Part shown: piece after piece, positions 1 to 61,859 of the stretch
Numbering within the stretch: the first letter of the stretch is position 1
Layout of the letters: each line of letters begins with the position of its first letter
Source: Cyanidioschyzon merolae
Taxonomy: Eukaryota
Direction: 5' to 3' (one strand)
Length of the DNA stretch: 64,000 bases
NCBI GenBank assembly: GCA_000091205.1
Contig: AP006498.2
Program-made: the position numbers and the translations under genes
Notes under the pieces: generated by a model
What the model saw: the letters and a program-made list of their open reading frames with translations, nothing else
Database searches by the model: none
Told to the model about the DNA's origin: nothing

Positions 1-560
1 CCGGGTAGCAGGGTATTCGGGTGCAGCATGCCGGCACGATCGCCTGCCGCAGGACTCTGCTGCAACATACCTCCTGGGCGGCATGCATGCATGCAATGAC
101 GATTCCTGTACTCGTGCCGCATTCAAACGGAACACTGAACAGCCCGCTCTGTTCCTGACTTTTGCTTTGTCTTGAAATGTATTTGAGATGGACAGCTTGG
201 ACATTTGAATTGCAGCAATATGGCTCTACGGATTCCTGCGTGATTTTTGAATAGTTGGTTGTTTTTTCGAAGTGGTTCTTTCTCGACGCTTTGCCGCCAG
301 AATTCGTTATGTCACCGGAATCAGGATGATTCGCGACACCTTGTCACAAGGGTACGCGAAAGAACTCATATCCGAATAGATTTCGTATGTGCAACCATTC
401 TTGCTTCTCCTTTTGTTCTGTGCGGCATGCACAAAACACGCATGCTTCAAGTTTCCCATCTTTCTATTTCAGGGCAATTCTTCAGTGCAACAGTTCGCTT
501 CGTTGAATCGACGGCGGAACAAAACATGATGTCGTCGTCACCTGGCGCGTTCATATGTTT

Positions 561-1095
561 GATCAGTGAACCAAAAGAATCTCCAAATGACCATGTGGGG
601 TTACATGAATACCCACGCGCAGACGCCTCCCTACGTTCTTTGACGGGCCGCCTGCTATCGGTTTGAGGTTATCGAGGCACATTTCGAGCCTGGGAGGCTG
701 CCCCTCGAAGTTAGATAGGCGCAGCTCCGCGGATCTCGTTTTCAGCACCACAAATCGTCTGATACTGATGGCGTCGATGAAGACTCTGTTCATGAACTCC
801 TTGCGTTTATTGCCTCTGGCTGGACTCACCAGTGCAAATACTGCCAGAACGCGTGCCTTTCTTGCCACTACAGTCTTGTGATCTTCCCGTCGGGCAAAAA
901 TCTTTTCAAGTCGATCTCTCATCGACCTCCTCTTCTTCGTCATTACTAGCTCTTCTTCGCTCGATGGTCGAAGAGAAGATGATTCTCTTCGTTTATTTGC
1001 CCGGAAGCTAGCGATGACGGTGCTCCAGGTTCCCCGACTTCCATGCCCACAACTTTCCCTGGGGTTGTGCATTTCTGAAAATGAACGCACTTCTC
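561..1095 (-). mobile_element. Fanzor/TnpB-like element, miniature internally deleted copy A; keeps the 3' end module, the zinc-finger/RuvC-III coding remnant and the 5' end motif
   Basis: The minus-strand remnant reads ...SCGHGSRGTW...SSEEELVMTKKRRSMRDRLEKIF...ARVLAV...KRKEFMNRVFIDAISIRRFVV, matching the RuvC-III DRD.NAA.NI region of copy C (24658-27010). The 3'-terminal motif gcagacgcctcc / catgtggggttacatg and the 5' motif gaaaatgaacgcac are shared with copies C, D, E and G. Confidence 0.55.
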
Positions 1096-1099
1096 TATG

Positions 1100-2090
1100 C
1101 CCTTAGGTGAGGACCTTCACGGAGTGCGAAGGACTTGCGGAAGAAAGACGACATGTGCTCCGGTGTCACCGTGCGCTGAGCGCTTCAGCGATTCGCCCAG
1201 TGGAACGACCGTTACGTTTTACGATAGAAAACACGCATACGATGCACTTGAGCTATGGATTGTATGGAGGAATGAAAAGATGCTCTGCCCCGATAGAATC
1301 GGCAAGAGCTCGAACGCAAGGGGAATGATGAAATGCCACGTTCTCCAATAGAGGAATGTCGGCAAGTGTCAGGGTAAAGTCTTCAATGATTCGATAAAGT
1401 GGGTGCTGTTGTATGAGGGTTACCCACTCGAGAAACTACGGCCGCAAAATGAATCCATTGTAGCTAGAATAGATGATGTCTTAGTTCGCTTCGAGTTCGA
1501 TCGAACATATAGCAGGCTCCTTCTCTGCGAATACCCATATACGTTCCAACCGTTTTATCCGAAGCAAGCCTTATCGATAGAAGAAAACAAGCCGATGTCC
1601 TTGCGGTACATTACCGATCTCGACGTTCCAGGAACGCTGTCGTCGTGATTTCGATGGAGGATGCGCGTTCGTGAGCCAGGTCTTTTTTGCGGGACTATGT
1701 CCCAGTGTAATGTGCGCCACACGAAGAACCTGTTGAGAAACAGAGACGCCTTTGGTAGCCTCTATCGTCGCTTATGCTTCTCGTATGGTGATTATCGGGT
1801 CGTTTTCTACCATTGACCACGAGCAAGCTTTGAGAGCATCGGGTTGTTGGTGCGGAGCGAATATTCTTGTTTCTTACAGTGTTCCTCAACCATCTGAATA
1901 CTGTGGTATGAATGACATGAATGATGAATGCCGTCCTCCTTGCGCGGTTCAATGAAGAAGATAAATCCTGCAGGCAATTTGTCTTCGATTTATGCAGTAC
2001 CTTGCATCGTGATTTCCACCGCCTAACATACACTACAGCGGGGGTGAAACAAAATTGAGGTGAAACAGTATAACAAGCTCTTGCAGACGG
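1100..2090 (-). mobile_element. Tc1/mariner-like DNA transposon remnant, homologous to 39510-40560
   Basis: DNA aligns block by block with 39510-40560 (for example ccgttacgttttacgatagaaaa, gaaagtcttcaatgattcga, ctgttgagaaacagagacg, gtaccttgcatcgtgatttcca). Locus 39040-40560 encodes a degenerate DDE transposase C-terminus on the minus strand. Confidence 0.45.
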
Positions 2091-2094
2091 TTTC

Positions 2095-2830
2095 TCTGTA
2101 CTTGTCACGTCCAATCATAGATTCGGTACGGAAGACGGATCCCTCTCTCTTTGCAGCGATCTACGAAGCGGCATTCGAAAGGAGCAGCTCGAAACTGCTC
2201 CCGGGATCCGGCCCCAGGGGCTGCAGTCTCTTCTGACTGCATGAGAAACAGTCTCGAACTCGGACTAGAGTCAACGTTGCGATCGCTCCTAGTACAGACA
2301 ACGACAACACTTTGCAAAAATATCCGCATAGATGGATCGAAATTTCTCGACCTGCTCGTCAGTCTGGATTATCCTTTCGGTCTCTGTTTCACCATGAGCA
2401 GCATCGCATTCCGCTGATTTTCTGCGGTACAGAACTGCGTGTTCTCGCTTCTGCAATGGACAGCGTTGTCCTCGAGGACATCGCACATAAAAAACCTTTC
2501 AAGATAGCGTACGGTACTGAGAGGAGATAAGGAAGGCGTATATCATCGGGGCGCCTTCTGCTCCCGTCAGGATCACGTGCCGAGCGATAGGGGAAGTCTT
2601 CATGCGACACGGGGCGGCGCTCGTAGAAGACTCTATATTGAACATATGGGAACACCTGACCACAGTGACGCGTCACCGCTGCCACGGGCGTACCGAGGCT
2701 GCGTCCAAACAAGATGAAAAGTGCGACGCAAGGCTAGATCGCATGTTCAGCTTGTGCATGAAACGCACCGACAACAGCTGGAGGCAGCGTCATCGGGACG
2801 CAAGCTGCTATCAACCTCCTTCCACGGATG
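2095..2830. repeat. Unclassified dispersed repeat (family R5), copy 1; matches 8905-9650
   Basis: DNA and translated similarity to 8905-9650: cttgtcacgtccaatcatagattcggtacgg against cttgtcacgtcacgtaatcgattccgttcg; FLDLLVSLDYPFGLCF...IAFR against VLDLIFALDFPFTTC...IAFR; agatcgcatgttcagcttgtgcatgaaacg against agatcgcatcaaccgcctgtggataaaatg. Confidence 0.5.
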
Positions 2831-3151
2831 ATAATCGCACCTGAGGGAATGGAGACACCGGCGCATGCAGAGCTACAGATAAGACAGGAGGAAAGGAGGA
2901 ATTCGCAGAAAACCCCCATGAAAGCTAGAATTGATAACAGCGGGAACAGGCCCAAACTTGAGTTTGTCAGCACGATATAGCAAAGTCGACTCGTTCCATG
3001 CTATACGAACATGGGTGTAAGAGCAGATCAAATCTGCACTTGCTGTTGCAGATGCTTCGTATGCCACAGTGCAGCGCGCGCAGCGATTTGCTCTCTTTCT
3101 CGCTGCCATACGGGATACGCGCCTTGCTAGATAGCCTAGACGTCGAAGCAG

Positions 3152-4393: not shown

Positions 4394-6810
4394 GGTTTTG
4401 GGAATGAGCATTGACCATTTGATCATTCCATTTGGATGCTGCTGCGGAAATCAAGCAGTTTCGAACGTACTCGAAGCACTTCCTGATTCGTACTCGTACC
4501 GATAAATTTTGGACCGCCGCTACAAGACGATCGACGCCTTGAGCTCGGATCGCGCTGTTGCGTTGCTTTGCGTGGAAGTATGCAAAGCCGCCGGGATGTT
4601 TCCTGGGGCGAAAAGCGTCTTTATTGGGAACGCGCTAGGTATGCCGTGTGTTGGTCGAAGCATTCGTCGAATCTATTCACCTGTACATCGCAGCATCGCG
4701 CTTTGGTTTCATATTACGGTCTTGGTGCACTTCGGGATTTTCTACCGGGTTACTTTGGGCATGGCATTCTCGTTGACGGTCTGTATATGCAGCATATGGC
4801 ACCTGGTTCCAATTGGACTCGAGGCCCATGGCGAAGGCGCACGGACACATTCCGGAGTATGATGAGGCATCGCCGGTGCACTCAACTGCTGGTGACCTTC
4901 AGGAGGATCCACAGGTGCCCTCATTGAGATGAAAACGTTCGTCGACTTGAAGAACATCATTGAGCAGCGGCGTTTTCCGAATGGTTTCAATCTATGCCAA
5001 CAACTGCAATCGAGACGGTCACTGATTTGAAGCGGTGCCATCGAGGCGACAAGAGCCAAAGACCGCTGGTCGACGGTGCGAATCGATATCCGTGTAGATG
5101 CCGGCAGCGTTCAGCGTCGCCCAAGAGCACCTGCAACCAGACTGACCGGTGTATCCGTTCGGCGGGAGAATTTGCCCGCTTCACTACGACCGGTCAGGTC
5201 GCTGGACGGTAACCTGTGTTCGGTCTATGCTCCCACTGTCGCAGCTGGCAGAATGGGTGCATCTGCGCCCCCTCGGATTGCTGCGGGGCGTCGGCGCTGG
5301 CTTCGTCCATCTTTTGCAGGATATCTGCGGGCGCATCAGGGTGCTTCGCACGTGCGCCGCTCTTTACGGGCAGGCCCAGATGTGGCTTCTCCTGCGCGGT
5401 CTTCTGAGCCATCACGCGTCGATGTGGTCCTTTCCAGCTTACAAGACTGCTTCGTGGATGCGTCTGCAACGCGAGGAAATCCCCGGTTCCCGTTCTGCAC
5501 GACACGTCTCACGACGAACTGAACAAATTGTTCACGCTGGTCAGCGCCGGTAAGCGAACGAACGACTTGGCGCAGGCCTGGTGTCACAGTGCGCTCACTC
5601 CAGAGAATATCCGCGAGTCCGGTCGCAATATCCATCGCCATCAAGTAGTTTCGATTCGCATTCATTGGATCATCGAGATCTTCCGATTCTTGATGGTCCA
5701 GATTCATTGGCCTCGCGGAGCTTTCAGCCACCAAGTCCGTCGTTTGCGCTGCCCTAGGGCAAGCGCTTTGCGAATGACCGCGTTTTACAGCCGAATGTAG
5801 TAGCCCTGAAGCAGGCGAGGGTCTGCTTGGGGAAGGCTCGTGGTTCATCTGGGATTGTCTTCTTGCTTCGTAACTGCCTGAAAGAAAGCTGAGGTCTCGC
5901 TTCACGGCTTTTCCGAGACTCTGGCGCGTAGAAATTTCCAGGGGATTGAAACCACGAAAGAAAGTCTCTGTTCCGTGATACTTGCACCGACGGACAGCGT
6001 GCCGCAGCACGCATGTATGGCGACACGGATGCCACCTGGGACACGTGTACGACCTGGGACGCTGATGCGCACGATGCGCCCTCACTTGAACTGTCCGTGA
6101 CATGCTTGCACGCAATCGCCAGCGCAGATATTGTTCTCTTCAAGGGGTATACTAACTGCATCTGGCAAGGTGTTGCGGATACATGATTGCTGCTGCTGGT
6201 GATCTGGAACGAAACCTCACTTGTTGCGCAGAAGCACCGACTTTTCGCTTGCTTTATACCGGGCTTACCCACGAGACCACAGGCCCGATTGATCTTGCTG
6301 CCCTGCGGGGGTATGGTGTCAGTCGCAGGTGTCGAACGGAGACACGACGCTGTTTTGCTGCTTTGACGGGCGTCGGCTCGATGCGTGCATGACGCGACAC
6401 GCAACATTGACGTGTGCGGGCATCTGCGGCCGTATGGGCGCTTCTTCTTGTACGACTTGCCGTCAGCGCCCTGACTAGGCCTCGGGAACGACCACGGTGC
6501 TCGGATGACCCCGACTACGAGACCATCCGGTGCATCTACTTCACCGCATCTGCTAGGTGATAGACGACAACCTTCGCTCTGGCGCCGTTCCAGTCCAAGG
6601 GCGTCTGCGGGCTGCAAGCCAGTGGATGTATTGGGCGCCAGCGGCGGAATGCGCAACTCGAACGCTATGCTGCCTCCACTGTCGAGAAGGAAATGAGGCA
6701 CCACGTCGCTTGTGCATGCTCACGTGAGTACCGTGAACCATCCAAGAGCCAGAAGACGCGCGCTGGACACGCTGCCAGCACGGAATGCATCACATGATAT
6801 TCAGTAAGGT

Positions 6811-8100
6811 GATCTGTGAAACGAAAAATGTTCTACGATCATTTAGGGTACATTGATATCCGGCCGCAGATGCCACCCGGCCTTTTTTGACCGGCCGACT
6901 CCTACCGGGTTCATTTTCCCCTTGTACATTTCGACTCTGAGACGCTTCCCCACGATTTTGGATCTCGTCAGCTCCTCGGGTCTCGCCTTCGGCACCACAC
7001 ATCGTCTGATACTGATGGCGGCGTTGAAGTCCCGGTTCACGAACTCCATGCGTTTATTGCCCCGGGTTTAACTCACGAGTGCGAGGATTCATCGAACACG
7101 TGCCCTCAGTGCGACTACAGTCTCTTCTTCGCCTAGTCGGGGAAGCACTTTTTCTCGCGTACCTACCCTCGTTTTCTTCTTCCTGTTCGTCATTTGCTCT
7201 TCTTCGCTCGATAGTCGTCAAGCAGGGCATTTTTCGTTTCGCTTTTGTCGAACCCGGCGATGGCGGGCCTCCAGGATACCCCGGCTACCATATCCATAAC
7301 TTTTCCGTAGATTTTTTAAAAGTAAGCACACTTCGAACCTGTCAGCTATACACCGCGAAGAAGCACTTGATGACACGCACCTGGCAGAGGAACGCAATAC
7401 GGGCGAAGGACGATGATCACGGCTGTGCAACTGTGCTTGCTTGGTGCACTTCTGTGTGCACTGGGAGCGTTTGCGAGACCAGAGGACAAGCGTTGAACCC
7501 GTCGATTCTACTCCGGCAAAACAACCAGCACATGTGTTCCGAATCATCGGATTCCGTTCGTGGCTACCGAGTTATTCTGCGCGATGTTCGGGCGGCTGGA
7601 GCGACTAGACGACATCGCCTTTTGCTGGGTGTCTGCTTCCAGCATGGAGCATCCCGGGGCTCAACGTACCGTTCAGCGAATAGATGCGCGCGCCGCAGAG
7701 CTTCCATATGCTACTGGTGACTCGGCAGTTGCGTGACGATGCTTTAATGCTTCAAAGATCCGTATCTTGCATGCCGACTCGCATCTATTGTCGCTGAATG
7801 GTCCAGCGAAGAGGACGTAGCGAACAGGTCCCTCAGCATCGACAAATTCGACTTCGCACAGTGCGGAGTATTTCTCAGTGCTGAACTTTGTCCCTGGTGC
7901 TGCTGTTATCGACTGGACGACCATAATTTCCTCCGCCCGAGGGCGACGCAGCATTAGAAATCCTTTTTCCATGCCCAGACCAGAACAAATAGCGAAATCG
8001 ACACTTGTCAGCGTTTCAGGCGCATGAACCTGCATGGGTCTTACTCGCTTTCAAAGCGGTTTCATTGAAATCTAGAACGCCATTGCTGGAGTAATGCCAG
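6811..8100 (-). mobile_element. Fanzor/TnpB-like element, partial copy B (C-terminal about 1.3 kb plus 3' end)
   Basis: Minus-strand ORFs 7673..8035, 7218..7547 and 6843..7049 give VDFAICSGLGMEKGFLML...IMVVQSITAAPG...YSALCEVEF...FSDNRCESACK...MEFVNRDFNAAISIRRCVV, collinear with copy C motifs (helix + RuvC-II, a C..C knuckle, RuvC-III). The 3' end motif catttagggtacattgatatcc...gatctgtgaa sits at 6811-6850. Confidence 0.5.
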
Positions 8101-21057: not shown

Positions 21058-21453
21058 TATTATACCAGCAATTACATATGCTGAAAGCGGCTTTGTACCA
21101 ACAGGCGAAGTTGCTTGACGAGCGTGCCCCTTTGTATGCATATTTCTCGAAAGGATAGCGCTGATGCCGCGCCGCCCGTTAGCTGGTTTCAAGACGCGTC
21201 GTGTATGGCGTACCCGACCCGAGCGAGGGCGTATCGAGCATCCAGCCACAATGCCATGAAACCGGAACGACTATAACGCTCATGTCTCTCGTTCATGTGA
21301 ACGTTTGCGCCTTCCATGCCGTTTCTACAACCATAAATCCCACGTTAGAATGAAAGGGAAGCGCTCCATTTACATCAATCGGGTATGCTCACGAAACCTT
21401 TGCCGGATTCAATGGGAGCAGGCCTCTGAAAACTGGCGTTCAGGCTGACTTTT

Positions 21454-22000
21454 GGCTCGGCTTCCGCTGACATGGACAAAGGCGTGTGCGCGCTTCTCCT
21501 CTGCCGGCATCGTTTTTCTCTCTGGTACCTCTGCCTGGGAAGATGTCGATCTCGCGTGCCGCTCGAGCTTCGTTGTCGGCAACTGAAGAATGCTCATGAC
21601 AGCGTTCAAGTTCCGGTTACGCAGCTTCCGGCGCTTGCAGATGCATATCATGCACACACAAAAGCTGCTCCCTACGCTCCGCTTGTCGTTTTGCACCCGC
21701 TTTGCATGCGGCCTCGGTGCACATTTCGCGGCAGCGACAGCTTGCTGTGGTCGGATCTTCGCGTGTGGCCACCAGAGCACCTCCTCAACGCCTTTCTCGA
21801 TTTTTCAGCACCAGGTGCCGTATCCTAAGACCACGGGCTTCCTCGGGGACGATCACTTTGGTTCGTACGCTTTCTGCGGCACGCGCAAGTGCACGCTCTT
21901 CGATACGATAGAGGGTGTGTAGAACGCGATATTGTCCATGATGAAACGAGGACTCGAAGGAAAAGCAAGGCTCGAGCAAAACTCGGGAAACTTCGACCCG
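21454..22000. repeat. 550-bp dispersed/direct repeat, copy 1; 99.5% identical to 29893-30443
   Basis: Direct DNA comparison shows identity across about 548 bp with 3 mismatches (ctacgctccgc/ctacgcttcgc, tatcctaag/tatcccaag, cttcgacccg/cttcgatccg). Identical ORFs (MLWWPHAKIRPQQAVAAAKC...) appear in the track at both loci. Confidence 0.85.
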
Positions 22001-22756
22001 TGTAGTCCCAGTTCATCGCAACCGCGCTGCACGAACCGCGAAACTCGACGCTGTCCACCCAAGCCCATAATCAATAGCGAGAACGAGTTGCACCAAATCA
22101 GTTTCGCACGCACACACTATTCTCGCAGCAGCTACGCTGCGTGTAGCGATAGGTGCAGCACCTGCTCTGTGATGCAGGTACTTGCACGGAGACCTGCGGC
22201 AGCGTGCACTAGAGCGCCCTTTCCAATCGCGTTACCCATTGCCCATGACGCTTTACCCATTGCGTGATATGCTTTACAGGTTGCGTTCAACGTCTAACGC
22301 GAGGTGCGGCCTCGTGCCTGCTTCCGCGCTGGGTGCTGCGCGCGCGCGCGCGCGTTTCGGCGCTGCAGCGGCATGGCAGGCCGCGGCGCGTCAACACGTT
22401 GCGCGACTCGAAGCTGCGTTCTGCTCAGGGCGCTCACGCTGTGTACTCCTGCAAGCGGATGCCGTGTGAGATGAAATCTAGCACTACTGGATTTTGCTTC
22501 ACTTGTGCGGGTAATGGACGTTGGGAAGGCACGTTCTACGGTAGCCGTGAGCCTGTCTCCAAAGTGTGGCACTGTGGGAGCGGTGCTGGGTGTCCACGCC
22601 ACTCGATGCGCCTTCCAGGGGCGCAAGCGTCACGCCGCGCACTCCGTTAAGCAGATGATCGTGGCCAGTGGCTGGTCATGAAGAAACCGTCGTCGACCAA
22701 GGTAACGGTGCCGTCCACGTGCCGGAGGCAGCAGCACTCGGCAGCGCGAGGAGCGA

Positions 22757-24657: not shown

Positions 24658-24900
24658 CCATCAGTAGACGTGGAGCGAAAACTTTTCGCGACCATGTAGG
24701 GTACATGGATACCGACGTGCAGACGCCTCCCGGCGTTTTTGGATAGGCCCCCAGTTATCGATTTCAGTTTCTACGTGTACACTTCAACATCTAGAGGCTG
24801 CCCTACGAATTTAGATCGCGTCAGCTCCTCGGGTCTGTTCTCCAGGATCGCAAATCTCCTGATATGGATTGCGGCGTTGAAGTCTCGGTTCACGAACTCC
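24658..24900 (-). ncRNA. Candidate omegaRNA-like structured 3' module of the Fanzor-like element (prediction from sequence only)
   Basis: The region that overlaps the RuvC-III coding end plus about 115 nt downstream is the best conserved part across all copies. It contains two adjacent hairpins whose sequences differ between copies but keep pairing. Confidence 0.3.
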
Positions 24901-26896
24901 ATGCGTTTCTTGCTGCTTCATGAACTCATCAATGCAAGGAGTCCTCGGACTCGTGCCCTGCGTTCCATTTCCTGTTCTGTCAGCTCTCCGCGGTTTTCGA
25001 TTTCCTCAACACGCCGCTGTATGTTCTCCATCTCGACCTTCTGAAGTGTACACCCCAGTTCGTGGTGCACACACGCGATGTTCGGAACTCACCTATCGGT
25101 TTTGTGATATAACGCTGTGCACACTCCTTGTACGCTCATGTCGTTGGAGCGGGTATGCACCCTTTTATGGACGCCCAGCGCCCTGCTCCGTTGCCAACTA
25201 CGAGCCTGTGACTCTCGACCTCCTTCAAGGCGCTCAACTCATGGAAAATATCGGTGAATGCCCGCTGCTTCCCACAGTATAGATTCATACGCCGACGAGC
25301 CCACCTGGGCTTAATATATTCTTTCCACAGCGCATCCCAATGAGCAGCTTGAGTTTTCATGAATTCCCGAAAAGCTTCAAGGTTCGCTCCACGGCTCGTA
25401 ACCTGGCTGATCGCTTCCAGGTGCTCATTCATTCCTGCATTCCATGCCTCAATGTTCTTCCTTGCATTCATTATTCCCGACTCTCGGTAGTATCTCGCTC
25501 TCGCGAACCGCAAAAGACGCATATCTTTCTGACGTAAGTTACCGTCAATGCCATCTTCCGTACGCTTGGGTACTGCGATGGATACGATTTTCGTCTTTCC
25601 AGGGTCCGCGCTGACGACAGTGTCGTTCTCCTGCACCTCCTGCGTGGCAGGATCCGCCTCTTTGTTTTCTGCATCCTTCGTCACGGGCGAAGCGGAGGAC
25701 GGAACAAGACGATCCGCCTTCAAGCGCCGATAGTACACACACGTTGATACTTCATCGCTTTCGATGATCCCTGTGAATACTTTTTTCTTGCGCATTTTGA
25801 GACGATTGAAGTCGAAGATATTCTTCCAGTATGTCTCCCGGTTTTCACCCATGAACTCCTTCCTGTTTACATCGACCTCTGGACTGATCTCCTTTATGAT
25901 GCCGTAAAAGACTCTGTAGTCGATCGTCACAAAATGCGACTAGGCGTCGCGTGCCGGAACGACATCGAAGCACTCCTCCAGAAGCGCAGCCTTCGGTTTC
26001 AACGACTCGTCATTTTTTCCCACACCCAACTCCATCTCCGCCTTGCGTTCGAATTCTCGATTCAGGAATACGAAATAATGCAGGATGAGGGGATGACATC
26101 TTTTTTCATCTTGTCTCATATCTGATAGCTTATCTGCTGGATTGACCAGCCCAAAAACCGCACGATGCTCTTGAGTAGCCGCACGGATCCGATAAGCTTC
26201 ATTCGTGCTCTCTTTCGACGCCCTCTTCTCGGTGGAATCGATCTCCTGTTCATGATGGCAATCTTTCGTGATGCCATTGAGGATGGCCCGTATCGATTCG
26301 CGAGAAGGATCCGGGCAGAGTGCAAACATGGAGCGCATCATGAGGCGTTTCAGGTTCAAGGTCGAATGGTTCTTCGGGTTCTTGATGTACGTCATCGCCC
26401 CGTGGCCGTAAATATCCGCGCCACCGCCGTATCTAGTGCAGTTGAAGCGGTATTCGACGTAGTTTTCTTGGACGGCGTGCACTCGCTCATTTCTTCTCGA
26501 CGCCTCCCCTGTGCCATGCATCGGGTGACGAGTAAAGGTCTTGTTCGAAAATTCTTCCCGAACCTCGACTCTTCCCATGTGCGTCACGTCGCGACGCATC
26601 TCCTTTTCGAAAGCATCAGCCCTGACGAGTGCGTTATAAGAATACTCAAGGAGTACGACTCGACACGGTTTCTGATAGCCTCTCGCAAATTTCACCTGTA
26701 GGGATGCTAAATTTCGCGTAGAAGACAGGCTTTCACATTTATCTCGTCGTACTGTCGTCTTTCGTGGAGCTTTTGACGTCGGGCCTCCTGCTTCTACTTC
26801 TTGGTCAGCTCCTGTTCCTCTAAACTCGGTTTTGTTTTTCGTTTTCTTTTTCTCGGTAGCCCGCGACTCCTGCCCTCCAGGATCCTCAACTTGCAT
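24771..26896 (-). pseudogene. Fanzor/TnpB-like RuvC nuclease gene, disrupted by two in-frame stops (TAG 25940-25942, TGA 25136-25138) and at least one frameshift near 24960
   Basis: Motifs in TnpB order: a lysine-rich N-terminus (EKKKTKNKTEF), RuvC-I VVSADPGKTKIVSIAV, a helix KQRAFTDIFHELSALKEVESHRLVVGNGAG, the zinc-finger lead-in AYKECAQRYITKPIGEFRTSRVCTTNWG, and RuvC-III MEFVNRDFNAAIHIRR (24861-24902). The two ORFs in the track are in the same frame, separated only by TAG-Ser-His-Phe. Confidence 0.55.
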
Positions 26897-27189
26897 TCCT
26901 GTAGCTTTACTTATTTATTTTTGAAAACGAACGCATTTCGAATACGTCGGCTGTAAACTAAGATACAGCACTTGAATGCACTAATTTGAGGGTTGGAACA
27001 GAATTCGATTGAAAGACTCTACGATGACGTCAACGCAAACACAACCTATAAGTTAGATCAACCAGCTGATGATTAGGATCGTGTTTCGCTTCGACGGCGA
27101 GTTGCGCGTCATATCTCAATGGTGGCAGATATGGAGGTGCGCGTATCTGCCGCGCTGTAGAAAAAGAGGAACAGGAACGAACCATTAAC

Positions 27190-27720
27190 GAGCTACGGGA
27201 TCACGATCTCTATCCGCCTTCACGGTAAGCGTTGAAAGAGGAAAAGCGTTCCGCATTTTCGAAAGTCTGCTACCTGGGCGTAAAGTCCCGCGAGCCGGAC
27301 GATTCTGCAAGATTTGGGCTTGATTCGCCTCCCAGTGGCGGGTACGATAGTGAGATCTGAGTCGCTCGTCCGAACGCAGCTCATTCTGAGGCTAGAAGTG
27401 GGTAGAATGCGCCTGGGCGTCGCCCTGGTTGCGGTTGTATCCCATCCCATGGGTTCGCACTGCCGTAGGCAGCACGTCTGCTTACACAGATTACAGGACC
27501 CGAAAATGGTTACATACTCGGACTCCGTATGAGGTGAAGCGTGCGTCGAGCCGATGCCTTCAGGGCTGTGGCAAAGCCGTTCTGTCTCCGTGTTGCATCC
27601 GCTCCAGCGGTTTAGGCGCTATTGCAGACGCTTGCGGCAGATGTTCAGCACAAGATCGACCGTATAAGGCGCCCAGTATATCCGAGAAGCAGTATGGGTT
27701 ATGGAACTTGGAGGAAACGC
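27190..27720 (-). mobile_element. Tc1/mariner-like transposon fragment (3' part), homologous to 39040-39560
   Basis: DNA alignment: ggaaaagcgttccgcattttcgaaag...gcgtcgccctggttgcggttg against ggaaaagttttccgtattttcgaagg...gcgtcgccctggtcgcgattg, and cgagccgatgccttcagggctgtggcaaagcc...atggaacttggagg against cgagccgacgccatctgtggtacggcaaagcc...atggaacttgcagg. Confidence 0.45.
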
Positions 27721-27772
27721 GTGAAATGATGGATGCTTCCGCGCGCGTTGATACCAAGCGCCCAGTCCGGGC

Positions 27773-29892: not shown

Positions 29893-30443
29893 TTCGGCTC
29901 GGCTTCCGCTGACATGGACAAAGGCGTGTGCGCGCTTCTCCTCTGCCGGCATCGTTTTTCTCTCTGGTACCTCTGCCTGGGAAGATGTCGATCTCGCGTG
30001 CCGCTCGAGCTTCGTTGTCGGCAACTGAAGAATGCTCATGACAGCGTTCAAGTTCCGGTTACGCAGCTTCCGGCGCTTGCAGATGCATATCATGCACACA
30101 CAAAAGCTGCTCCCTACGCTTCGCTTGTCGTTTTGCACCCGCTTTGCATGCGGCCTCGGTGCACATTTCGCGGCAGCGACAGCTTGCTGTGGTCGGATCT
30201 TCGCGTGTGGCCACCAGAGCACCTCCTCAACGCCTTTCTCGATTTTTCAGCACCAGGTGCCGTATCCCAAGACCACGGGCTTCCTCGGGGACGATCACTT
30301 TGGTTCGTACGCTTTCTGCGGCACGCGCAAGTGCACGCTCTTCGATACGATAGAGGGTGTGTAGAACGCGATATTGTCCATGATGAAACGAGGACTCGAA
30401 GGAAAAGCAAGGCTCGAGCAAAACTCGGGAAACTTCGATCCGT
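29893..30443. repeat. 550-bp dispersed/direct repeat, copy 2
   Basis: See 21454-22000. Confidence 0.85.
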
Positions 30444-31159
30444 GTACGCTCCTATTGTGCAAAAACGACGACGCACGCTCCACTGAAAGCGAATGCCTCG
30501 ATGGCTCAAGTCCGAGCCCGAGGCTCGATTTGGTGCAAAGAGAAGGGACGGCCGCCCCTGTGAGCATATCCCGTGAGAGCCATCATGCCGCTGCAGCTGC
30601 AGCTGATGCTGTTGTGGAATGATATTTCGTCTACATCCACAAATACACCAGGGGGAATTGGCTTTTGGAATGAAATCGATCGTTTGACGCGACGAGTTCA
30701 GAGAACATTGGGCATGAACATGTGATCACGCCTTCAAGGGACGACGTCGCGTTGCTCGCCTCTTCGATCCAGTGGCGCATACTGCTACGCCCACGAGTTG
30801 CCTCGAACGAGAAAGCCTGGCGACTTGAACAAACCGCAATTGTGGCACGCTACACACGAAAGACACGGAGAAGCGTGGATACTTGCACATGGGCATTGGG
30901 TGATGATAGTGGGTTAGTTTATGAACCGTTTGTCGAGTGCGTCGCGAGTCCCATTGATTCCATTGATAACGAACTCCAACAGCAGACCGTTGCACGAGTG
31001 ATTCCGAAAAGACGACCGCGAATCCGAAACCTACCTATGAATCTGTCAGCCGTTTTTGATTGACATCAATTTTGAGGCTGTTTTAATTACAAAAAAATTC
31101 AGATTGAAATTGCAAAGAAGATACTGAGCGAGCTGTTTCGGTTTCTGTTTTATTTGAAT

Positions 31160-31790
31160 AGCGAGTCCATAAAACGATAAACATCTCACGACAATGGAAG
31201 GTAAGTATCAACAGCCTCGCGCAGGCGCCTCCCAACCTTTCTTTTACCGTCCCTCTACCATCCGGTTCAGTTTATCCCAGCACGCATCGACTCTGAGGGA
31301 CTGCTCCACAAAGTCGTATCGTCTCAGCTCATCTGGTCTCGTCTTCAGCACCACACATCCCCTGGTATTGATGACGGCATTGAAGCCCCGGCCCATGAAC
31401 GCCATGCGTTCATTGCCTTCGGTGGAACTCACTATTGCAAGGATTCCTCGGCCTCGTGCCCTCAGTGCGATTAGAGTCCCGTCATCGTCTCGTCATGCGA
31501 ACACCTTTTCTCGGATATCTCCCCTCCTTTCTCTTCTTCTTCATCATCATCACTTGCTCTTCTTCGCTCGAAAGTCTGCGACAATAGGATTTTTATCGTT
31601 CGGTTTGCCGCGCACCCCGCGGTTAGAGGCCCTCAGGATCCTCGACTTCCATATCCATACCTTTCCCTAACATTTTCTATTTCTTCAAATGAACGCATTT
31701 CGAATACACCTGCTATAAACCGCGAAAAAGTATATGGCGATACGCACCTGGAGATGGAATACAATGCAAGTGAGCGACTGTAGGATCATT
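31160..31790 (-). mobile_element. Fanzor/TnpB-like element, miniature copy D
   Basis: The 5' end ggtttatagcaggtgtattcgaaatgcgttcatttgaagaaatagaaaa is followed by a retained start ATGGATATGGAAGTCGAGGATCCTGAG (MDMEVEDPEG, compare copy C MQVEDPGG). This is fused to the C-terminal remnant MAFMGRGFNAVINTRGCVV (RuvC-III) and the 3' end motif ...gcgcaggcgcctccc. Confidence 0.55.
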
Positions 31791-35856: not shown

Positions 35857-35977
35857 GAGCGTGCACTGCTCGCACTGGAACGCTGCCCAAAAGCAACCGG
35901 TGTCACAGAGGTACGCAGCGACTAGTGCCGGGCAGCAATGACAGCAAAGGCGCACGCGGCTGTTTCGTCTAGACTTT

Positions 35978-36575
35978 CACCTGAATTGTGTTCCATACCT
36001 GGGTTCGTTTCATCGTATGCTTTTTTTGCGGTTTAGAGCAGGTGTGTTCGAAGTGCGTTTACTTGAAGAAATATAAAACCCATGACATAGGTATGGACTT
36101 GCACGTCAGGGGTCCTGAAGGGCGATCATCGCGGGGGTTCGACCAGAAAACGAAACAATCCTCTCTTTGTCAACCATCGAGCGAAGCAGAGCAAGTGGCA
36201 AAGATGATGGTGATGATGATGATGATGAAGAGCGGAAATCCGTGAGACAAGGTGTCTACCCGACGGGACTGGAACGAGACTGTAGTGGCACGGAGGGAAC
36301 GAGTTCTAGCAATCCTTGCAAGGATGACTCCAAACAACGTCAATGCACGCATGAAGTTCGTGAAGTGATACTCCAACGCCGCTACCAATACGAGACGATG
36401 TCTTGTGTAGTGAAGACGAATTCCGCCGAGCTAACGCAATCCAACTTTGTGGGGCAGCTTCTCAGGCTCGAAGTGTGCCTCGATAAACTGAAAACGATAG
36501 CAGTTGACCGGTCATGAAAGGCTGCAGGCGTCTGCGCATGGGTAGTCATTCACTTTAGTATGTTGCTCAGAGAAG
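35978..36575 (+). mobile_element. Fanzor/TnpB-like element, miniature copy E
   Basis: The 5' end cacctgaattgtgttccatacctggg...gcggtttagagcaggtgtgttcgaagtgcgtttacttgaagaaatataaaac is followed by a retained start (ATGGACTTGCACGTCAGGGGTCCTGAAGGG), a degraded RuvC-III region (CTHEVREV...), and the 3' end ggctgcaggcgtctgcgcatgggtag. Confidence 0.55.
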
Positions 36576-37520
36576 GACATTTGTGTTGCCATGACTTGGC
36601 GCTGGCGATGCGTCAAAGCTGATGATTATGGCGCTAAAGAATCCCGCCAGACGCCGTGCGTCAACAACTGGACCCGTTAGGCGGTAGGTCACCTGCAGGC
36701 GTGTTTTCCAGGGTCCAAGCATCTGCACTCGCACCAGCATGTCAGTGGGTGCAGGCACGCGCCACCCGATCAACGCCTCATAGAGCGGGTGCGCCGGCGG
36801 TAATATCATCTCTAGGAATCGACTGGAAACGGTACAGATGCGTACCGCTCGCAGGGTTACTTCCACGGCGGAACGTCTCCTGAAACGGGTAAGCACGCGG
36901 GTAGAGGGATAGGTGTTCCTTCTCACCAGCGGGTGCCAAGCAAAGGCCTGCGTCGCGCAACTGCGGTGCAATTCACAAACGTTGGCGGAGGGGAAATTCG
37001 CTCCCCAATATTCATCCTATCCGCAAAGTTTCTACAACGGGTCGCAGCACAAAGGCAGGCCTACATACGAAGACTCTCGGATCCCAGGATCACCACGAGA
37101 CGCGACCGCGCTGCAGGTGAACCACACCTCCAGCCGACATCCTCCGTGGCATGACACAGCAGCGCAGACTCCGTGCGACGTCCGCACCGGCAAGGCGGGC
37201 GCTCTGTCAGACGCTCACGGCAGACTCGGTGTGCACAACGGAACGTTCGCATTTACCAGTATCTCCGAGGGGCAGCATGGATTGTGGACGTTGATGTTAG
37301 GCGGCAAAATGGACGCATCCCCGATCACTGGTGTTCCATGACGTAATCAGAGATGCCTGGTCAGCATGAACGTTCTTTCGATCAAAAAAAAATCGCCCCA
37401 GAAACAGCTGCCCTATGGACGCAAACGAGGAAAACCCGCACACCAATCCATATCGCCAGCTTACAATCGCTAACACACATCACGCAAGGTGCTCCATCGG
37501 GCAATGTTGTGCGAATCCGA

Positions 37521-38951: not shown

Positions 38952-39039
38952 GCGCTGGCAATCCGTGCGCAGGAGATTCGGGTTCGCAGCACCGTAATCT
39001 GAAACGAATCACTAGTTGGCAATTCGATAACAATTGATT

Positions 39040-40560
39040 TCCCTCTCTAAGCCCAGCGTTGATCACGGGGAAAAGTTTTCCGTATTTTCGAAGGTTTATC
39101 TTCTGGACGGAGGGAACCGCGAACCGGACGAGTCTGACGGGCTCGTGCTTCATGCTCCGCCCACTGGCGGGTGCAGAGGCGCGACCCGCGCAGCTCGTCC
39201 GCGACGCAGTCTCTTCTGAGACTAGGAGAGGTTACGCTGTATCTGGGCGTCGCCCTGGTCGCGATTGACTCGTAGACTATCGCTTTGCACTGTCGATGGA
39301 AAAACATCTGTCTGTCCAGCTTGCAATCTCCCAGAATGATGATGAATCCCGACCCTGTGTCGTGTGCACCACGCCTCGAGCCGACGCCATCTGTGGTACG
39401 GCAAAGCCCTTCTGCCCCCGTGCTAAGGCTGCATCCGCGCTACCGGCGCTACGGCGGGTGCTCAGGGCCGGCACTTGGCGCACGAAAGAACGCACAAAAC
39501 GACCAGTATATACGAGGAGAGGGAATGGAACTTGCAGGTACGGGGCGGCAGCCTGATGAATGCTTTCCAGAATACCAATGTTTATCTAGGAATCTGGGAT
39601 TGATAGTCAGTGTAAACGTTTTGTCAAACCGAAAAAAAACTGTCCCAGTAGAATGATCATTGCGTTTCACGATAGAAAATACTCCTTCGATGGGCCTGCA
39701 AAACGGGGTGTGCGGAGCAATGCATAGCAGCTCGACCCCGATAGCATCGGCAAAAGCTCGAACGCAACGGGAATAGAGAAATACCTCGTTGTCCAATAGA
39801 AGGACGTCGCCAGAAGTCAGGGGAAAGTCTTCAATCATTCGACAAAGTTGTTGGTGCTGTTGGATGAGGCATATCTACGAAGGAAACTGAGCCCGCCGAA
39901 TGAATCCACTGCAGCTACAACAGCTGTTGATGTCATCGTTCTCTTCGAGTTCGATCGTAAATACAACGGGCGCCCTGCTCCTCTAATACTCACTTACGCT
40001 CTGCCTATATCGTACGAAGCAAGTCTTATCGACTGAAAAAATGAACCGACGTTCCTGGGCTTTGTCTGGGGAGCGACGCTCCGGGAACACTGTCGTTACG
40101 ACTTTAGTGGAAGATGACCGTGCATGAAACCGCAATTATTTGTCCGCAACTGTATTCCAGTGTTTCCAGAATAACACGAACAGGTTGTTGAGAAACAGAG
40201 ACGTCTGTAGCGGCTAGTATCGTGGCTTTCGCTTTCCATAAAGTGATCAACGGTTCGTTCTCTACGATGGACCGCAAGCTGTCTTTACGATGATCGGTTT
40301 CTGGCGCGGAGCGCATCGTATTCTCTTTGTTTCAGTGCTCCTAAACCATCTGAGTACTGTGGTACGTCTAACCTGAAGGGGGAATGAAGCCCTCGATGCC
40401 TTGTTGCGTAAAGAATACGTATCCTACAAGCAATTCGTCTACCATCTATATACGGTACCTTGCATCGTTATTTCCATCGCCTGCTGGACACCGCGGCGAG
40501 GGCGAAACACACATGGGTTGCACCGCTCGTACGGTACGAATGGCAGCTTCTGGAGCCGCT
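39040..40560 (-). mobile_element. Tc1/mariner-like DNA transposon, about 1.5 kb, with a degenerate DDE transposase on the minus strand
   Basis: Minus ORF 39449..39838 ends ...GDVLLLDNEVFLYSRCVRAFADAIGVELLCIAPHTPFCRPIEGVFSIVKRN, the third-catalytic-residue region matching D-N-A--H......-L-LPPYSPDLNPIE of Tc1/mariner/IS630 transposases. Minus ORF 40104..40316 (WKAKATILAATDVS) resembles the first-Asp W..V.FSDES region. The element is contiguous with fragment homologues at 27190-27720 and 1100-2090. Confidence 0.55.
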
Positions 40561-42296: not shown

Positions 42297-43834
42297 TCCA
42301 GTGCCAGTTTTGAGTTGACGATGTCGCGGACGCTTGGAGGAGTCTGGCAGCACCTCTAGTGTTGCACTGGAACTAGGGTGTACCAGCGTCATGGCGATGT
42401 CCGAGGCGCTGCTTGTATTCTCTTAGAGAGCGGAGCCAAGCTCGCTTCGCGGCGTATTTACCGCAAGCCTACCACTTTGGCATTCGAGCTCGTCATTGGC
42501 CGACGCATCCGCCCACATGGCTCATCAGCGCCACTGATGCGGTATGAAAAGGATGCCAAGCCGCGGGCCTATCATGGCTGAGCATCCTCAGTAGCGCTGG
42601 ATGCATTGACGAATGGGGCATTACACGCTTGCTGGTCGTGAGCAGCAACGTGCTCGCGCTTGGCAACGTCTCTGGCGGGTTCACACGCAAATTGCATGCT
42701 TTCAGTGAACACAAAGCCCCCTGAGCGTTTCGCTGCAGTGATGGCGTTCAGAACATGACACGCTCGGGTCTGTGAATGCAATGCATTCGTTTACGAATAA
42801 CATGGATCACCCGAGCATCCAAGATGTCTTCGAGTCTATTCTCGTCCGAATCTCCATTGTACTCGTAAGCGTCGTGATCTCGATTGTGCCATTCAGGAAA
42901 CATGTGCGCTGTATCATGCAACTGAAGAGATGTGATGCCGCTTCACCAGCACTCGATGCGAACCGAACATCAGATAGATAATGCCCCGTTCTTGGATGAA
43001 CCATGGCGCCTCGATGCATGATACAGACACGAACCGTTTTCGCAGTAGAGTTTACCGCAGCCCGCACGCGTCGCCTCATCGCAGTTTGAAACATCACGAT
43101 CGTAACCGGGCGCTGGACGTACATCACTGGATCGTCTTCCGTGCCGTTCCAGCAAGCGAAGCGTATTACCAATTGGCGATTCACCAGGCTCAGAGGGACT
43201 GGGGCGCGCTGCAGAGCAGCCGCCACCTGGTAATTCCCTAACATCCCATGCCTACTCAGCGAGGTCCAGTTACCTACTCATGAGCGAAGCGCAGCATCAT
43301 GTGTACGTTAGCCTGCGGTTCAAGAGGTACAGCATTCGAAGAAGCGCTACCACTGCGGTTTTCCGCACTTGCAGGTTAGCTGTATGCTTCCACAGCTCAT
43401 CTCCGGGGTGCTCGCGTACCCGAAGCGTATACGCGTCAGCGCTCAGGTGCGCAGCGGATGTATCGAATCCTCGCCGAAAGCCGACGTCATCGCTTGTCTC
43501 CCGATTAGACGATTCGTGCTGTAACGCTCACTGCAGGGACATGCTTCCATTCCGTGGCTTGATGCAAATAAAGGACTTTGCAAACGTACCAATTTTTGGG
43601 AGCATGCGTGAAACGACAAGACAAATGACGCCTCCTGCGAAGCCAGCTCCGATCGCTTTGCACTCGAAAGTCGTGGTTGATGCTATCTTTTTTGGACGGT
43701 TCGCCTCGCTGGTGTCCCCTTTGACTTGGACAGCAGGCGAGAATCGAGCAGAAGCGGCTCAGATTTGATCCAGCCCCATGCTGCAGTCACAGAACGAGTA
43801 CCGTGCTTTCGGCGGGATCGCTTATAGTCGTTCC

Positions 43835-44420
43835 CCTCAATTGTGGTCCATCTCCTGGGGCGTGTCGCTGTACGCTTTTTCGCGGCTCATAGCAGACGCG
43901 TTCGAAGTATACTGATTTTTAAAAAAATCTGAGGAAAAGTTATGGATAAGGTAGTCGAAGGATGCTGGGGGCCCGTCATCGACGAGTTCGATAAAAACGA
44001 AAAATCTTTTCCTCGTCGAGAATGGAGCGAAGAAGAGCAAGTGACGAAGAAGAAGATGACGATGAGAGATAGACGAGAAAAGGTTTTTGCCCAATGGGTC
44101 GATGACGAGACTGCAGTGACATAGAGCGCGCGAGTTCTAGCAATCCTTGTACTGGTCAGTTCCACCCGCGGCAAGACACGCATGGAGTTCGTGAACCGAG
44201 ACTTTGACGCCGTTACTCATATACGGATATGAGCGGTGCAGGAGAAGAGGCCCGAGAAGCTGACGAGAGCCAACTTCGTGGGGGAACCTCTCAAAGTTGA
44301 ATTGTATGAGGAGAAGTTGAAGCCAGTAGTAGCTGGCCGGTCAAAAAAGTCTGGCAGGCGTCTGCAGCTAGGTAGGTAACAAGTTACCTTACTATCGCGA
44401 AATGCTTTCGCTCCGCTGAG
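43835..44420 (+). mobile_element. Fanzor/TnpB-like element, miniature copy G
   Basis: The 5' end ...gtacgctttttcgcggctcatagcagacgcgttcgaagtatactg is followed by a retained start (MDKVVEG) fused to ...SEEEQVTKKKMTMRDRREKVFAQW...RMEFVNRDFDAVTHIRI. The 3' end carries hairpins ggtaacaagttacc (44375-44388) and gcgaaatgctttcgc (44397-44411). Confidence 0.55.
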
Positions 44421-60350: not shown

Positions 60351-61859
60351 ACTTTATTTCGATGACAAAACGTTTACATTGACCATGGATACCTGATTTC
60401 CGGGTGGGTGTTCGTAATCGAAAAGGCGTCCATCATGATGCACCCTATCTCCAAGCTCCGTTACGTATACTTCCTCTAGGATGTAATGGTCGTTTCGTAC
60501 GTTCAATCGTTCGTCAGGTGCCTGCCTTGCTGCACCCGCAATCGCAGCTATGCCGCTTGTGCAGATCCATCACGGAGGCAGAACGCCTTTGTCGCATCAC
60601 TGAGGGTGTCTTAACGAGGCGTGATTCATTCAACAAGGGGTCGGAGTACGTGATCATTCTGAGAGCCTGCATGCTGCGCAGACAGACCTTGTACCTGCGG
60701 CAGCGGGAAGCGACGTACTAGGAGTCCACTGCGACCAGGGCGATGCCCAGACACGCAGCATACCCGCTCCGAGCCCCAAAATAACCTGCGTTTCGGACGA
60801 GTTGCTCAGGTCTCGCTAAAGCACTCGCCAACGGGGGAGAGTACGACGAATTAGCCTACCAGACTTGTCCGGCGCGCAGGACCTTCCGCCAATAAGGTAA
60901 ACGTTCCACAGTATGAAAACCTTTTCCCTCTTTTACCGTTTATCGTAGTTGGGGAGAGAAACTGTCATCTCGTTGGCAATGACTCGTTTGTCTCTGCTCT
61001 TTGTTCCACGGCACTGATTTCGAACGGAATTGACAACAGCCGAAAGACACGGAGGGTCGCTGGAAAAAACATTGAAAGAAAACAAACCAGTCACAAACCA
61101 TTTATCACAGAACAACTATCTTGAAGCCGCACACACCACGCCCGCCTAAGAGGTCTAGTTTTTCCGGAGAAGCTCTAAAAATGGGTTAACGCGGGGTGTT
61201 CGGGCGATAGGAAGGAAGCCCACGACAAGGTCCTTGACCGCAATGCACGGAGGCGCGGAGGCAGTAGCACCAGAAAATATGGACGAGAGTTCTGAGCAGT
61301 CATCCGCCCCTCCCGAAACAACGCTGTAGGTTCGGGCACAAATACTGGATCAATCCTTGAATTCGGGCTCAGTTTAACCCTCTACCTTGGGTACCTACCT
61401 CAACTTTGGAAACAATCTCGGCGGATGCTTTGGAAGACGGCTGGCAGTATGTTCGCGATCGATGCTGGAACAAACGACTTGCCCGCCTATGTGTTTGGGG
61501 AGCGGATGCGAAGCCGCTGAAAAGGTGGTTTGCAGACTGTTCCCAGTGATTGAGGGGAGCTTCACGCGTCCGGCAAGATAAAGGTCGCATTCGAATCGAC
61601 CTTGACTAATGTACCTCTGATTCTATGCTAGCGCTGCGCCAAGCACTCAATGAACGACTGGAATGCGGGAGGCGCTGGTGGCATGTGCGTTCACACACCC
61701 CGTCGAGGGTACATCTAAATCGACAACGTATCTCTGGAGCACCGCAGCGTTACTCCTATTCCCTTGTGCGCTACGACTCTATAGGTTTCGCATCATGGAA
61801 TATTTGCGGGATAGCCTCGGAATTGAGCTACGAAATATCGAATTACCAGTAGAGTAAAG

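Follow-up and report, generated by a model that had tools for sequence, protein, structure and literature searches.

The 64,000-nucleotide stretch of Cyanidioschyzon merolae contig AP006498.2 analyzed here (referred to below as the window) carries on its minus strand, between an ArsA/GET3-like open reading frame (ORF) and a ferritin ORF, what is in all probability a full-length yet dead copy of CMe-1A, the Fanzor1 transposon of C. merolae 10D, brought to its present state by ordinary neutral decay. The copy occupies positions 24670..27738: alignment of window positions 27738-24711 with positions 65-3092 of the published 3169-bp CMe-1A consensus yielded 79.5% identity over 3042 columns, and homology to other copies in the window reaches ~24670. 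Ten lesions break its coding part, and the copy cannot encode a Fanzor1 protein; its identity to the CMe-1 consensus protein over 726 aligned codons is 69%. At its 3' tip, the copy belongs to a variant subfamily, as the final 77 bp of the consensus could not be aligned with it.

The feature itself is already known, as the family, its Fanzor1 protein, the copy number and the ~80% identity level were published in 2013 for the same genome. Bao and Jurka (2013, Mobile DNA 4:12, PMC3627910) described CMe-1A as the one Fanzor1 family of the C. merolae genome, present in ~150 copies, each ~80% identical to a ~3-kb consensus, some of them still intact, without terminal inverted repeats and with target-site duplications left undetermined. 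The 5' 635 bp of CMe-1A were recognized in that study as another element, TE-N2_CMe, and its supplementary files provide the 3169-bp consensus together with the CMe-1 protein (734 amino acids, 1 exon). The window copy is organized alike, with a 5' module resembling TE-N2_CMe, a Fanzor1 ORF in one exon and a 3' end that is conserved, and no terminal inverted repeats are seen in it either; it differs from the intact consensus in being a pseudogene with ten lesions, and is a typical decayed member of CMe-1A.

The lesions were called by frameshift-aware dynamic-programming alignment of the window DNA with the published 734-residue CMe-1 consensus protein, which revealed, within 2.2 kb, three frameshifts in addition to seven stops, all given below on the minus strand. 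The ancestral ATG of the Fanzor1 ORF (26894..26896, M..VEDPGG) aligns with the start of the consensus protein and with short derivative copies of the element. It is followed by a strain-specific +1 frameshift in an A-run (26851..26855, at ~26854) after consensus residue 16, by three stops in the ancestral frame, namely TAG at 26794..26796 (consensus Q35), TAG at 26707..26709 (K64) and TGA at 26692..26694 (E69), and by a +2 frameshift after residue 96 (26609..26610), which brings the ATG frame back to the ancestral frame. Farther downstream, TAG replaces K319 (AAG) at 25940..25942 and TGA replaces R587 (AGA) at 25136..25138; two bases are inserted at 25074-25075, within the run CGTGTGTG (25068-25075) after residue 607; TGA stands for T659 at 24918..24920, past this insertion but ahead of the RuvC-III motif; and TAG stands, prematurely, for K709 at 24771..24773, beyond which the consensus ORF extends for another 25 codons. 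Downstream of residue 20, the same eight lesions were found against an independent intact relative (P0001), and independent alignments with metagenome homologues (P0001, P0035, P0043 and P0044), as well as plain tblastn, gave the same picture as the consensus protein.

This inventory modifies substantially the original prediction, in which single in-frame stops, together with one frameshift near 24960, were all that interrupted a full-length Fanzor-like ORF. The pseudogene status of the copy, broken by point lesions, and the positions of the two stops noticed at the outset (25940-25942 and 25136-25138, minus strand, in one frame and with the tripeptide SHF between the two reading frames) proved correct. 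Thus, the frame from the ATG at 26896 runs for 318 codons to TAG 25942-25940 and continues through SHF into a 264-codon, GTG-started ORF that ends at TGA 25138-25136, after which, as had also been noticed, homologous sequence goes on in frame (AYKECAQRYITKPIGEFRTS). A count of few lesions, against which the appearance of many further frameshifts on careful alignment had been named beforehand as counter-evidence, gave way to ten, of which two frameshifts and five stops are additional to those first noticed. No frameshift is present near 24960; the actual shift is the +2 insertion at 25074-25075, where the window copy reads EFRTS-[RVC]-HHELGC vs. EFRTSYTHHELGC in the consensus, and through which the downstream frame with RuvC-III (MEFVNRDFNAAIHIRR) is entered, with TGA 24920-24918 within it.

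Nor is the 318-codon frame ancestral over its whole length, since consensus residues 17-96 are read in it out of the ancestral frame, with the three stops at Q35, K64 and E69 hidden. It is long only because two insertions (+1 and +2, three bases in sum) step around these three stops: the strain-specific +1 slip in the A-run shifts reading off the ancestral frame and the older +2 insertion shifts it back, and both the 318- and the 264-codon frames are stretches left between lesions. The more general caution is that compensating frameshifts can hide out-of-frame stretches and make old transposon copies look nearly intact, and that a true lesion count needs a frameshift-aware alignment to an intact relative.

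An alternative reading is that the stops lie within short introns of a spliced Fanzor gene, in which case the "RuvC-III exon" of the original prediction would be real. Introns are present in Fanzor genes of some other eukaryotes, and a GTGAGT motif occurs at ~25091; against this, codon-for-codon homology to intact relatives extends over both flanks of every stop and across GTGAGT, the catalytic EFRTS motif included, the published CMe-1 gene is listed with 734 amino acids in 1 exon and has a continuous consensus ORF, and the host genes of the window are long ORFs without interruption. We consider splicing scarcely credible here, and the term exon is a misnomer, as in the consensus nothing separates the RuvC-III segment from the remainder of one continuous frame.

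Independent support for the lesions comes from a scan of metagenome contigs, which yielded 67 related loci. Two of these (L005 and L006, from two different metagenome assemblies) represent the orthologous locus, with 98.9% identity to the window over 3.5 kb including flanks, and a third contig (L068) supports the 3' part of the copy. Although L005 and L006 show ~40 differences from the window, none falls at any of the seven stops or at the two +2 frameshifts; TAG 25940..25942 and TGA 25136..25138 are thus common to all three, and TGA 24918..24920 is found in L068 as well. The only lesion that varies is the A-run at 26851-26855, whose length differs between strain 10D and the two orthologous contigs (GAGAAAAAGAAAACG, GAGAAAAAAAAACG, GAGAAAAAAAACG) and changes the frame that is open from the ATG: with one base fewer, L006 reads from the ATG directly into the ancestral frame and meets a stop after 33 codons, and L005 has two bases fewer than the window. 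Variation of this kind is what homopolymer errors produce, and it is the one observation that speaks for an intact gene, in which the stops and frameshifts would be mistakes of sequencing or assembly. The identity of seven stops and two +2 frameshifts in two independent metagenome assemblies, and of one of these stops in a third contig, makes such an explanation exceedingly improbable. As these lesions are common to the orthologues, inactivation predates the split of the strains and is not an assembly artefact.

The same comparison bears on the age of the copy. According to the original prediction, the copy belongs to a recently active family and was inactivated very recently, with only ~3 lesions. 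Two long stop-free stretches in one frame (318 and 267 codons) and the retention of all three RuvC catalytic residues would fit this proposal. However, there are ten lesions instead of three, and orthologues that are 1.1% diverged have every one of the seven stops, as well as two of the three frameshifts, in common with the copy; the closest paralogues are merely 72-75% identical at the DNA level, as is generally the case between the window copy and other family loci, and even the consensus is only 79.5% identical; and seven other full-length loci with longer stop-free stretches (405-655 codons) are broken, every one of them. In an ORF of this kind, ~3-4% of substitutions at random create a stop; therefore, six of the seven stops already imply a neutral divergence of ~6-8% since the loss of constraint. 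Comparison of the window copy with the consensus gave 0.34 synonymous and 0.17 non-synonymous substitutions per site (dS and dN, respectively), and the resulting dN/dS of 0.51 is consistent with past constraint followed by perhaps ~6-13% of neutral decay. Very recent inactivation is, on balance, very unlikely. Under the preferred reading of ordinary neutral decay, the copy would have lost constraint long ago and then accumulated three small insertions along with seven substitutions to stop codons.

Programmed stop-codon readthrough or recoding, which would give a full-length Fanzor protein from this locus, was also put forward at the outset, as both stops recognized at that time are in frame and have homologous sequence on either side. 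It now appears unsupported and its probability close to negligible. Production of the protein would need bypass of seven stops of two kinds plus three frameshifts rather than of a single recoding site; the stops replace sense codons of the consensus and paralogues (Q, K, E, K, R, T and K), and none of them is conserved; and host genes in the same window terminate with TGA, TAG and TAA. Between orthologues, the coding region differs by 25 substitutions (16 non-synonymous and 9 synonymous; 20 transitions and 5 transversions) that show no departure from neutral expectation (P = 0.1-0.3), which does not point to a protein still under selection. The use of all three stops by host ORFs also led us to reject an alternative genetic code.

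The window copy is in no way exceptional within its family. On a common scale, for which P0001 served as the reference of every alignment, the lesions of 50 full-length copies in related contigs number from 2 to 15 (median 7), and those of the window copy and its orthologues 8. The only family locus with zero lesions on this scale is P0001 itself (752 amino acids; L001 6001-8259, L072 and L073, in related Cyanidioschyzon metagenome contigs), which is also the only fully open copy found; in environmental strains it is flanked by orthologues of the 10D genes BAM82337 and BAM82338. The earlier suggestion that an intact copy may exist elsewhere in the genome is borne out: P0001 is intact in environmental Cyanidioschyzon contigs, and for 10D itself the evidence is that of the published intact CMe-1A copies (PMC3627910). 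A comparison of three alleles of the intact P0001 locus gave no sign of selection or constraint. Among 17 variable sites in 2259 bp, 11 are at codon positions 1 or 2, and the changes are mostly non-synonymous; one allele has a premature stop at codon 632 (631-residue variants); and the density of variable sites is, by a rough count, about that of the flanks.

The assignment of the ORF to the Fanzor1 family, which sharpens the Fanzor-like label of the original prediction, is confirmed by profile and predicted-fold matches to solved structures. A profile search of 1.84 billion representatives returned 2054 relatives (986 at E <= 1e-10), and a 90-sequence profile of full-length relatives matched the solved Fanzor1 chains of Parasitella (PpFz, 1.2e-21), Spizellomyces (SpuFz, 1.6e-15) and Guillardia (GtFz, 5.1e-11), with the motifs DPG, DEFRTS and NRDxNAA aligned between the family profile and these chains. 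A narrow 11-sequence profile gave no match to PDB sequences, and a match was obtained only after widening with representatives from the large library; Pfam scans of four ORF fragments, four intact homologues and ten distant representatives returned nothing usable, and the only precomputed Pfam match is a weak one to DUF8286. The Fanzor1 fold (WED/REC/RuvC) was assessed on an intact family member, P0043, instead of the broken window copy. Its AlphaFold model, computed with 90 diverse sequences, reached a predicted local distance difference test score (pLDDT) of 88.3, whereas the model obtained from 44 close relatives was too poor for use (pLDDT 48). The top seven Foldseek matches of the P0043 model are SpuFz, PpFz and GtFz (E = 4e-18 to 7e-16, template modeling (TM) scores 0.53-0.74), far above the weaker matches to Cas12f, Cas12o, C2c1 and Fanzor2 (E = 1e-4 to 1e-2, TM 0.2-0.3).

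At the level of sequence, the family is only 11-15% identical to the solved Fanzor1 proteins (SpuFz, PDB 8GKH and 9CEU-9CEZ; PpFz, 9CF0-3; GtFz, 9CER-T). The catalytic residues are nevertheless recognizable and retained in the window copy: the RuvC-I Asp codon GAC at 25604..25606 (VVSADPGK; an invariant Asp of the family), the RuvC-II Glu codon GAG at 25088..25090 (IGEFRTS; an invariant Glu that aligns with DEFRTS of the solved chains) and the RuvC-III Asp codon GAC at 24882..24884 (NRDFNAA; an invariant family column), all on the minus strand. By contrast, the Fanzor1 zinc-ribbon (CxxC...CxxC) between RuvC-II and RuvC-III was not found at the corresponding window positions (25040-25080 and 24915-24945). 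The four cysteines that SpuFz and PpFz have there are missing from the window copy, the CMe-1 consensus, the intact relatives and the whole red-algal clade, where other residues take their place (YTHHELGC ... LLALVSTT; clade consensus LLWCxST). Their loss is a trait of the clade, not damage peculiar to the window copy, and it places the nuclease activity of the red-algal clade proteins in doubt. The family has a RuvC-fold core in common with bacterial TnpB (IS200/IS605 and IS607) and Cas12 effectors; unlike bacterial TnpB elements, it shows neither an adjacent TnpA-type transposase nor a local Pfam match to OrfB/TnpB.

By homology with the solved Fanzor1 enzymes, the ancestral element would encode, in one exon, a 734-residue RNA-guided DNA endonuclease with a split RuvC domain and a D-E-D triad. 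Its guide (omega) RNA would probably derive from the element's 3' end, which is conserved. The 3' 100-300 nucleotides are the best conserved DNA of the element and are kept in all short derivatives; in the window copy, the conserved part (24670..24770, minus strand) is a candidate right end and omega-RNA region, and it is kept in six of six window copies and in 30 other copies.

Several considerations weigh against this overall reading of the copy and its ancestor. As regards expression, the dead status of the copy is read from its sequence. The A-run shift differs among three assemblies and may stem from a wrongly called homopolymer length in one of the three, which would concern that lesion only. 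The figures for the time of decay (6-8% from stop counts and 6-13% from partitioning of dN/dS) rest on simple assumptions. For the 3' end, RNAalifold found no consensus structure across 31 copies, and single-sequence folds were not better than those of shuffled sequences (z-scores from -1.0 to -1.8).

Inspection of the 3' ends by eye showed hairpins that differ between subfamilies. In the major subfamily (L017, L025, L030, L033, L039 and L071), over ~120 nucleotides past the conserved GGAGGCGTCTGC motif, single-sequence folds show CAGTAGTAGGTGGCC paired with GCCACTACTG, the two enclosing an inner hairpin (GAGGCGTCT...AGACG). In the subfamily to which the window copy belongs (24670-24740), the hairpins are CCATGTA-CCC-TACATGG and GCGAAAA-G-TTTTCGC instead. 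These are possible omega-RNA or right-end structures, seen without statistical support.

The window also contains five ~600-bp elements, 67-75% identical to one another, at 560-1093, 6810-7407 and 31207-31782 (minus-sense) and at 35970-36549 and 43823-44414 (plus-sense). Each joins CMe-1A consensus ~826-969 (the upstream region, the ATG and the first ~20 codons) to ~2833-3092 (the last ~90 codons with RuvC-III and the 3' end). Because the five align across the junction, a single internal-deletion derivative seems to have been amplified as a miniature non-autonomous family. To our knowledge, there is no conventional transposase for either CMe-1A or its ~600-bp miniature. One conceivable explanation would be that the two ends kept by the miniatures constitute the whole requirement in cis, and that the elements spread via the Fanzor1 nuclease and an RNA from the 3' end, both supplied in trans; we regard this explanation as unlikely. 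If true, it would mean RNA-guided, transposase-free propagation in a eukaryote, and it would concern the family rather than the dead copy. The rise of a Fanzor-only element to ~150 copies in the absence of a transposase is, in general, a question for the family, to which the window copy adds nothing.

The 5' module of the window copy, corresponding to consensus ~65-640 and to the separate element TE-N2_CMe, occupies 27163..27738 on the minus strand (the inner edge at 27163 is extrapolated from consensus coordinates). Solo copies of the CMe-1A 5' 640 bp are seen at 39001-39626 and 60360-61006, with a partial copy at 37114-37374 (78-81% identical to the consensus); these presumably represent TE-N2_CMe as published. 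In several full-length relatives from metagenome contigs, no such module precedes the Fanzor ORF. As the module occurs solo and some relatives do without it, CMe-1A looks like a composite of TE-N2_CMe and a Fanzor unit.

The host context of the window agrees with strain 10D: four of its proteins match exactly the C. merolae 10D entries BAM81839, BAM81847, BAM81849 and BAM81856. Its 14-3-3 protein is present in many Joint Genome Institute (JGI) environmental assemblies as well, and the G+C content is ~55%. Exact-product look-ups of the 318-residue ORF and of the ferritin ORF returned no record, and neither Rfam (at gathering thresholds) nor a tRNA scan gave a match anywhere in the window. Two further repeats were observed. 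A 554-bp direct repeat (21451-22004 and 29893-30446; 99.3% identical, 8.4 kb apart, without obvious coding content) encloses the CMe-1A copy together with the ArsA/GET3-like and ferritin genes on its two sides, and in contig L005 the likeness of its second copy to the first reaches ~700 bp. A dispersed repeat of ~860 bp (1196-2051 and 39644-40509; 70% identical) adjoins a miniature Fanzor derivative at one of its locations and a TE-N2_CMe-like copy at the other.

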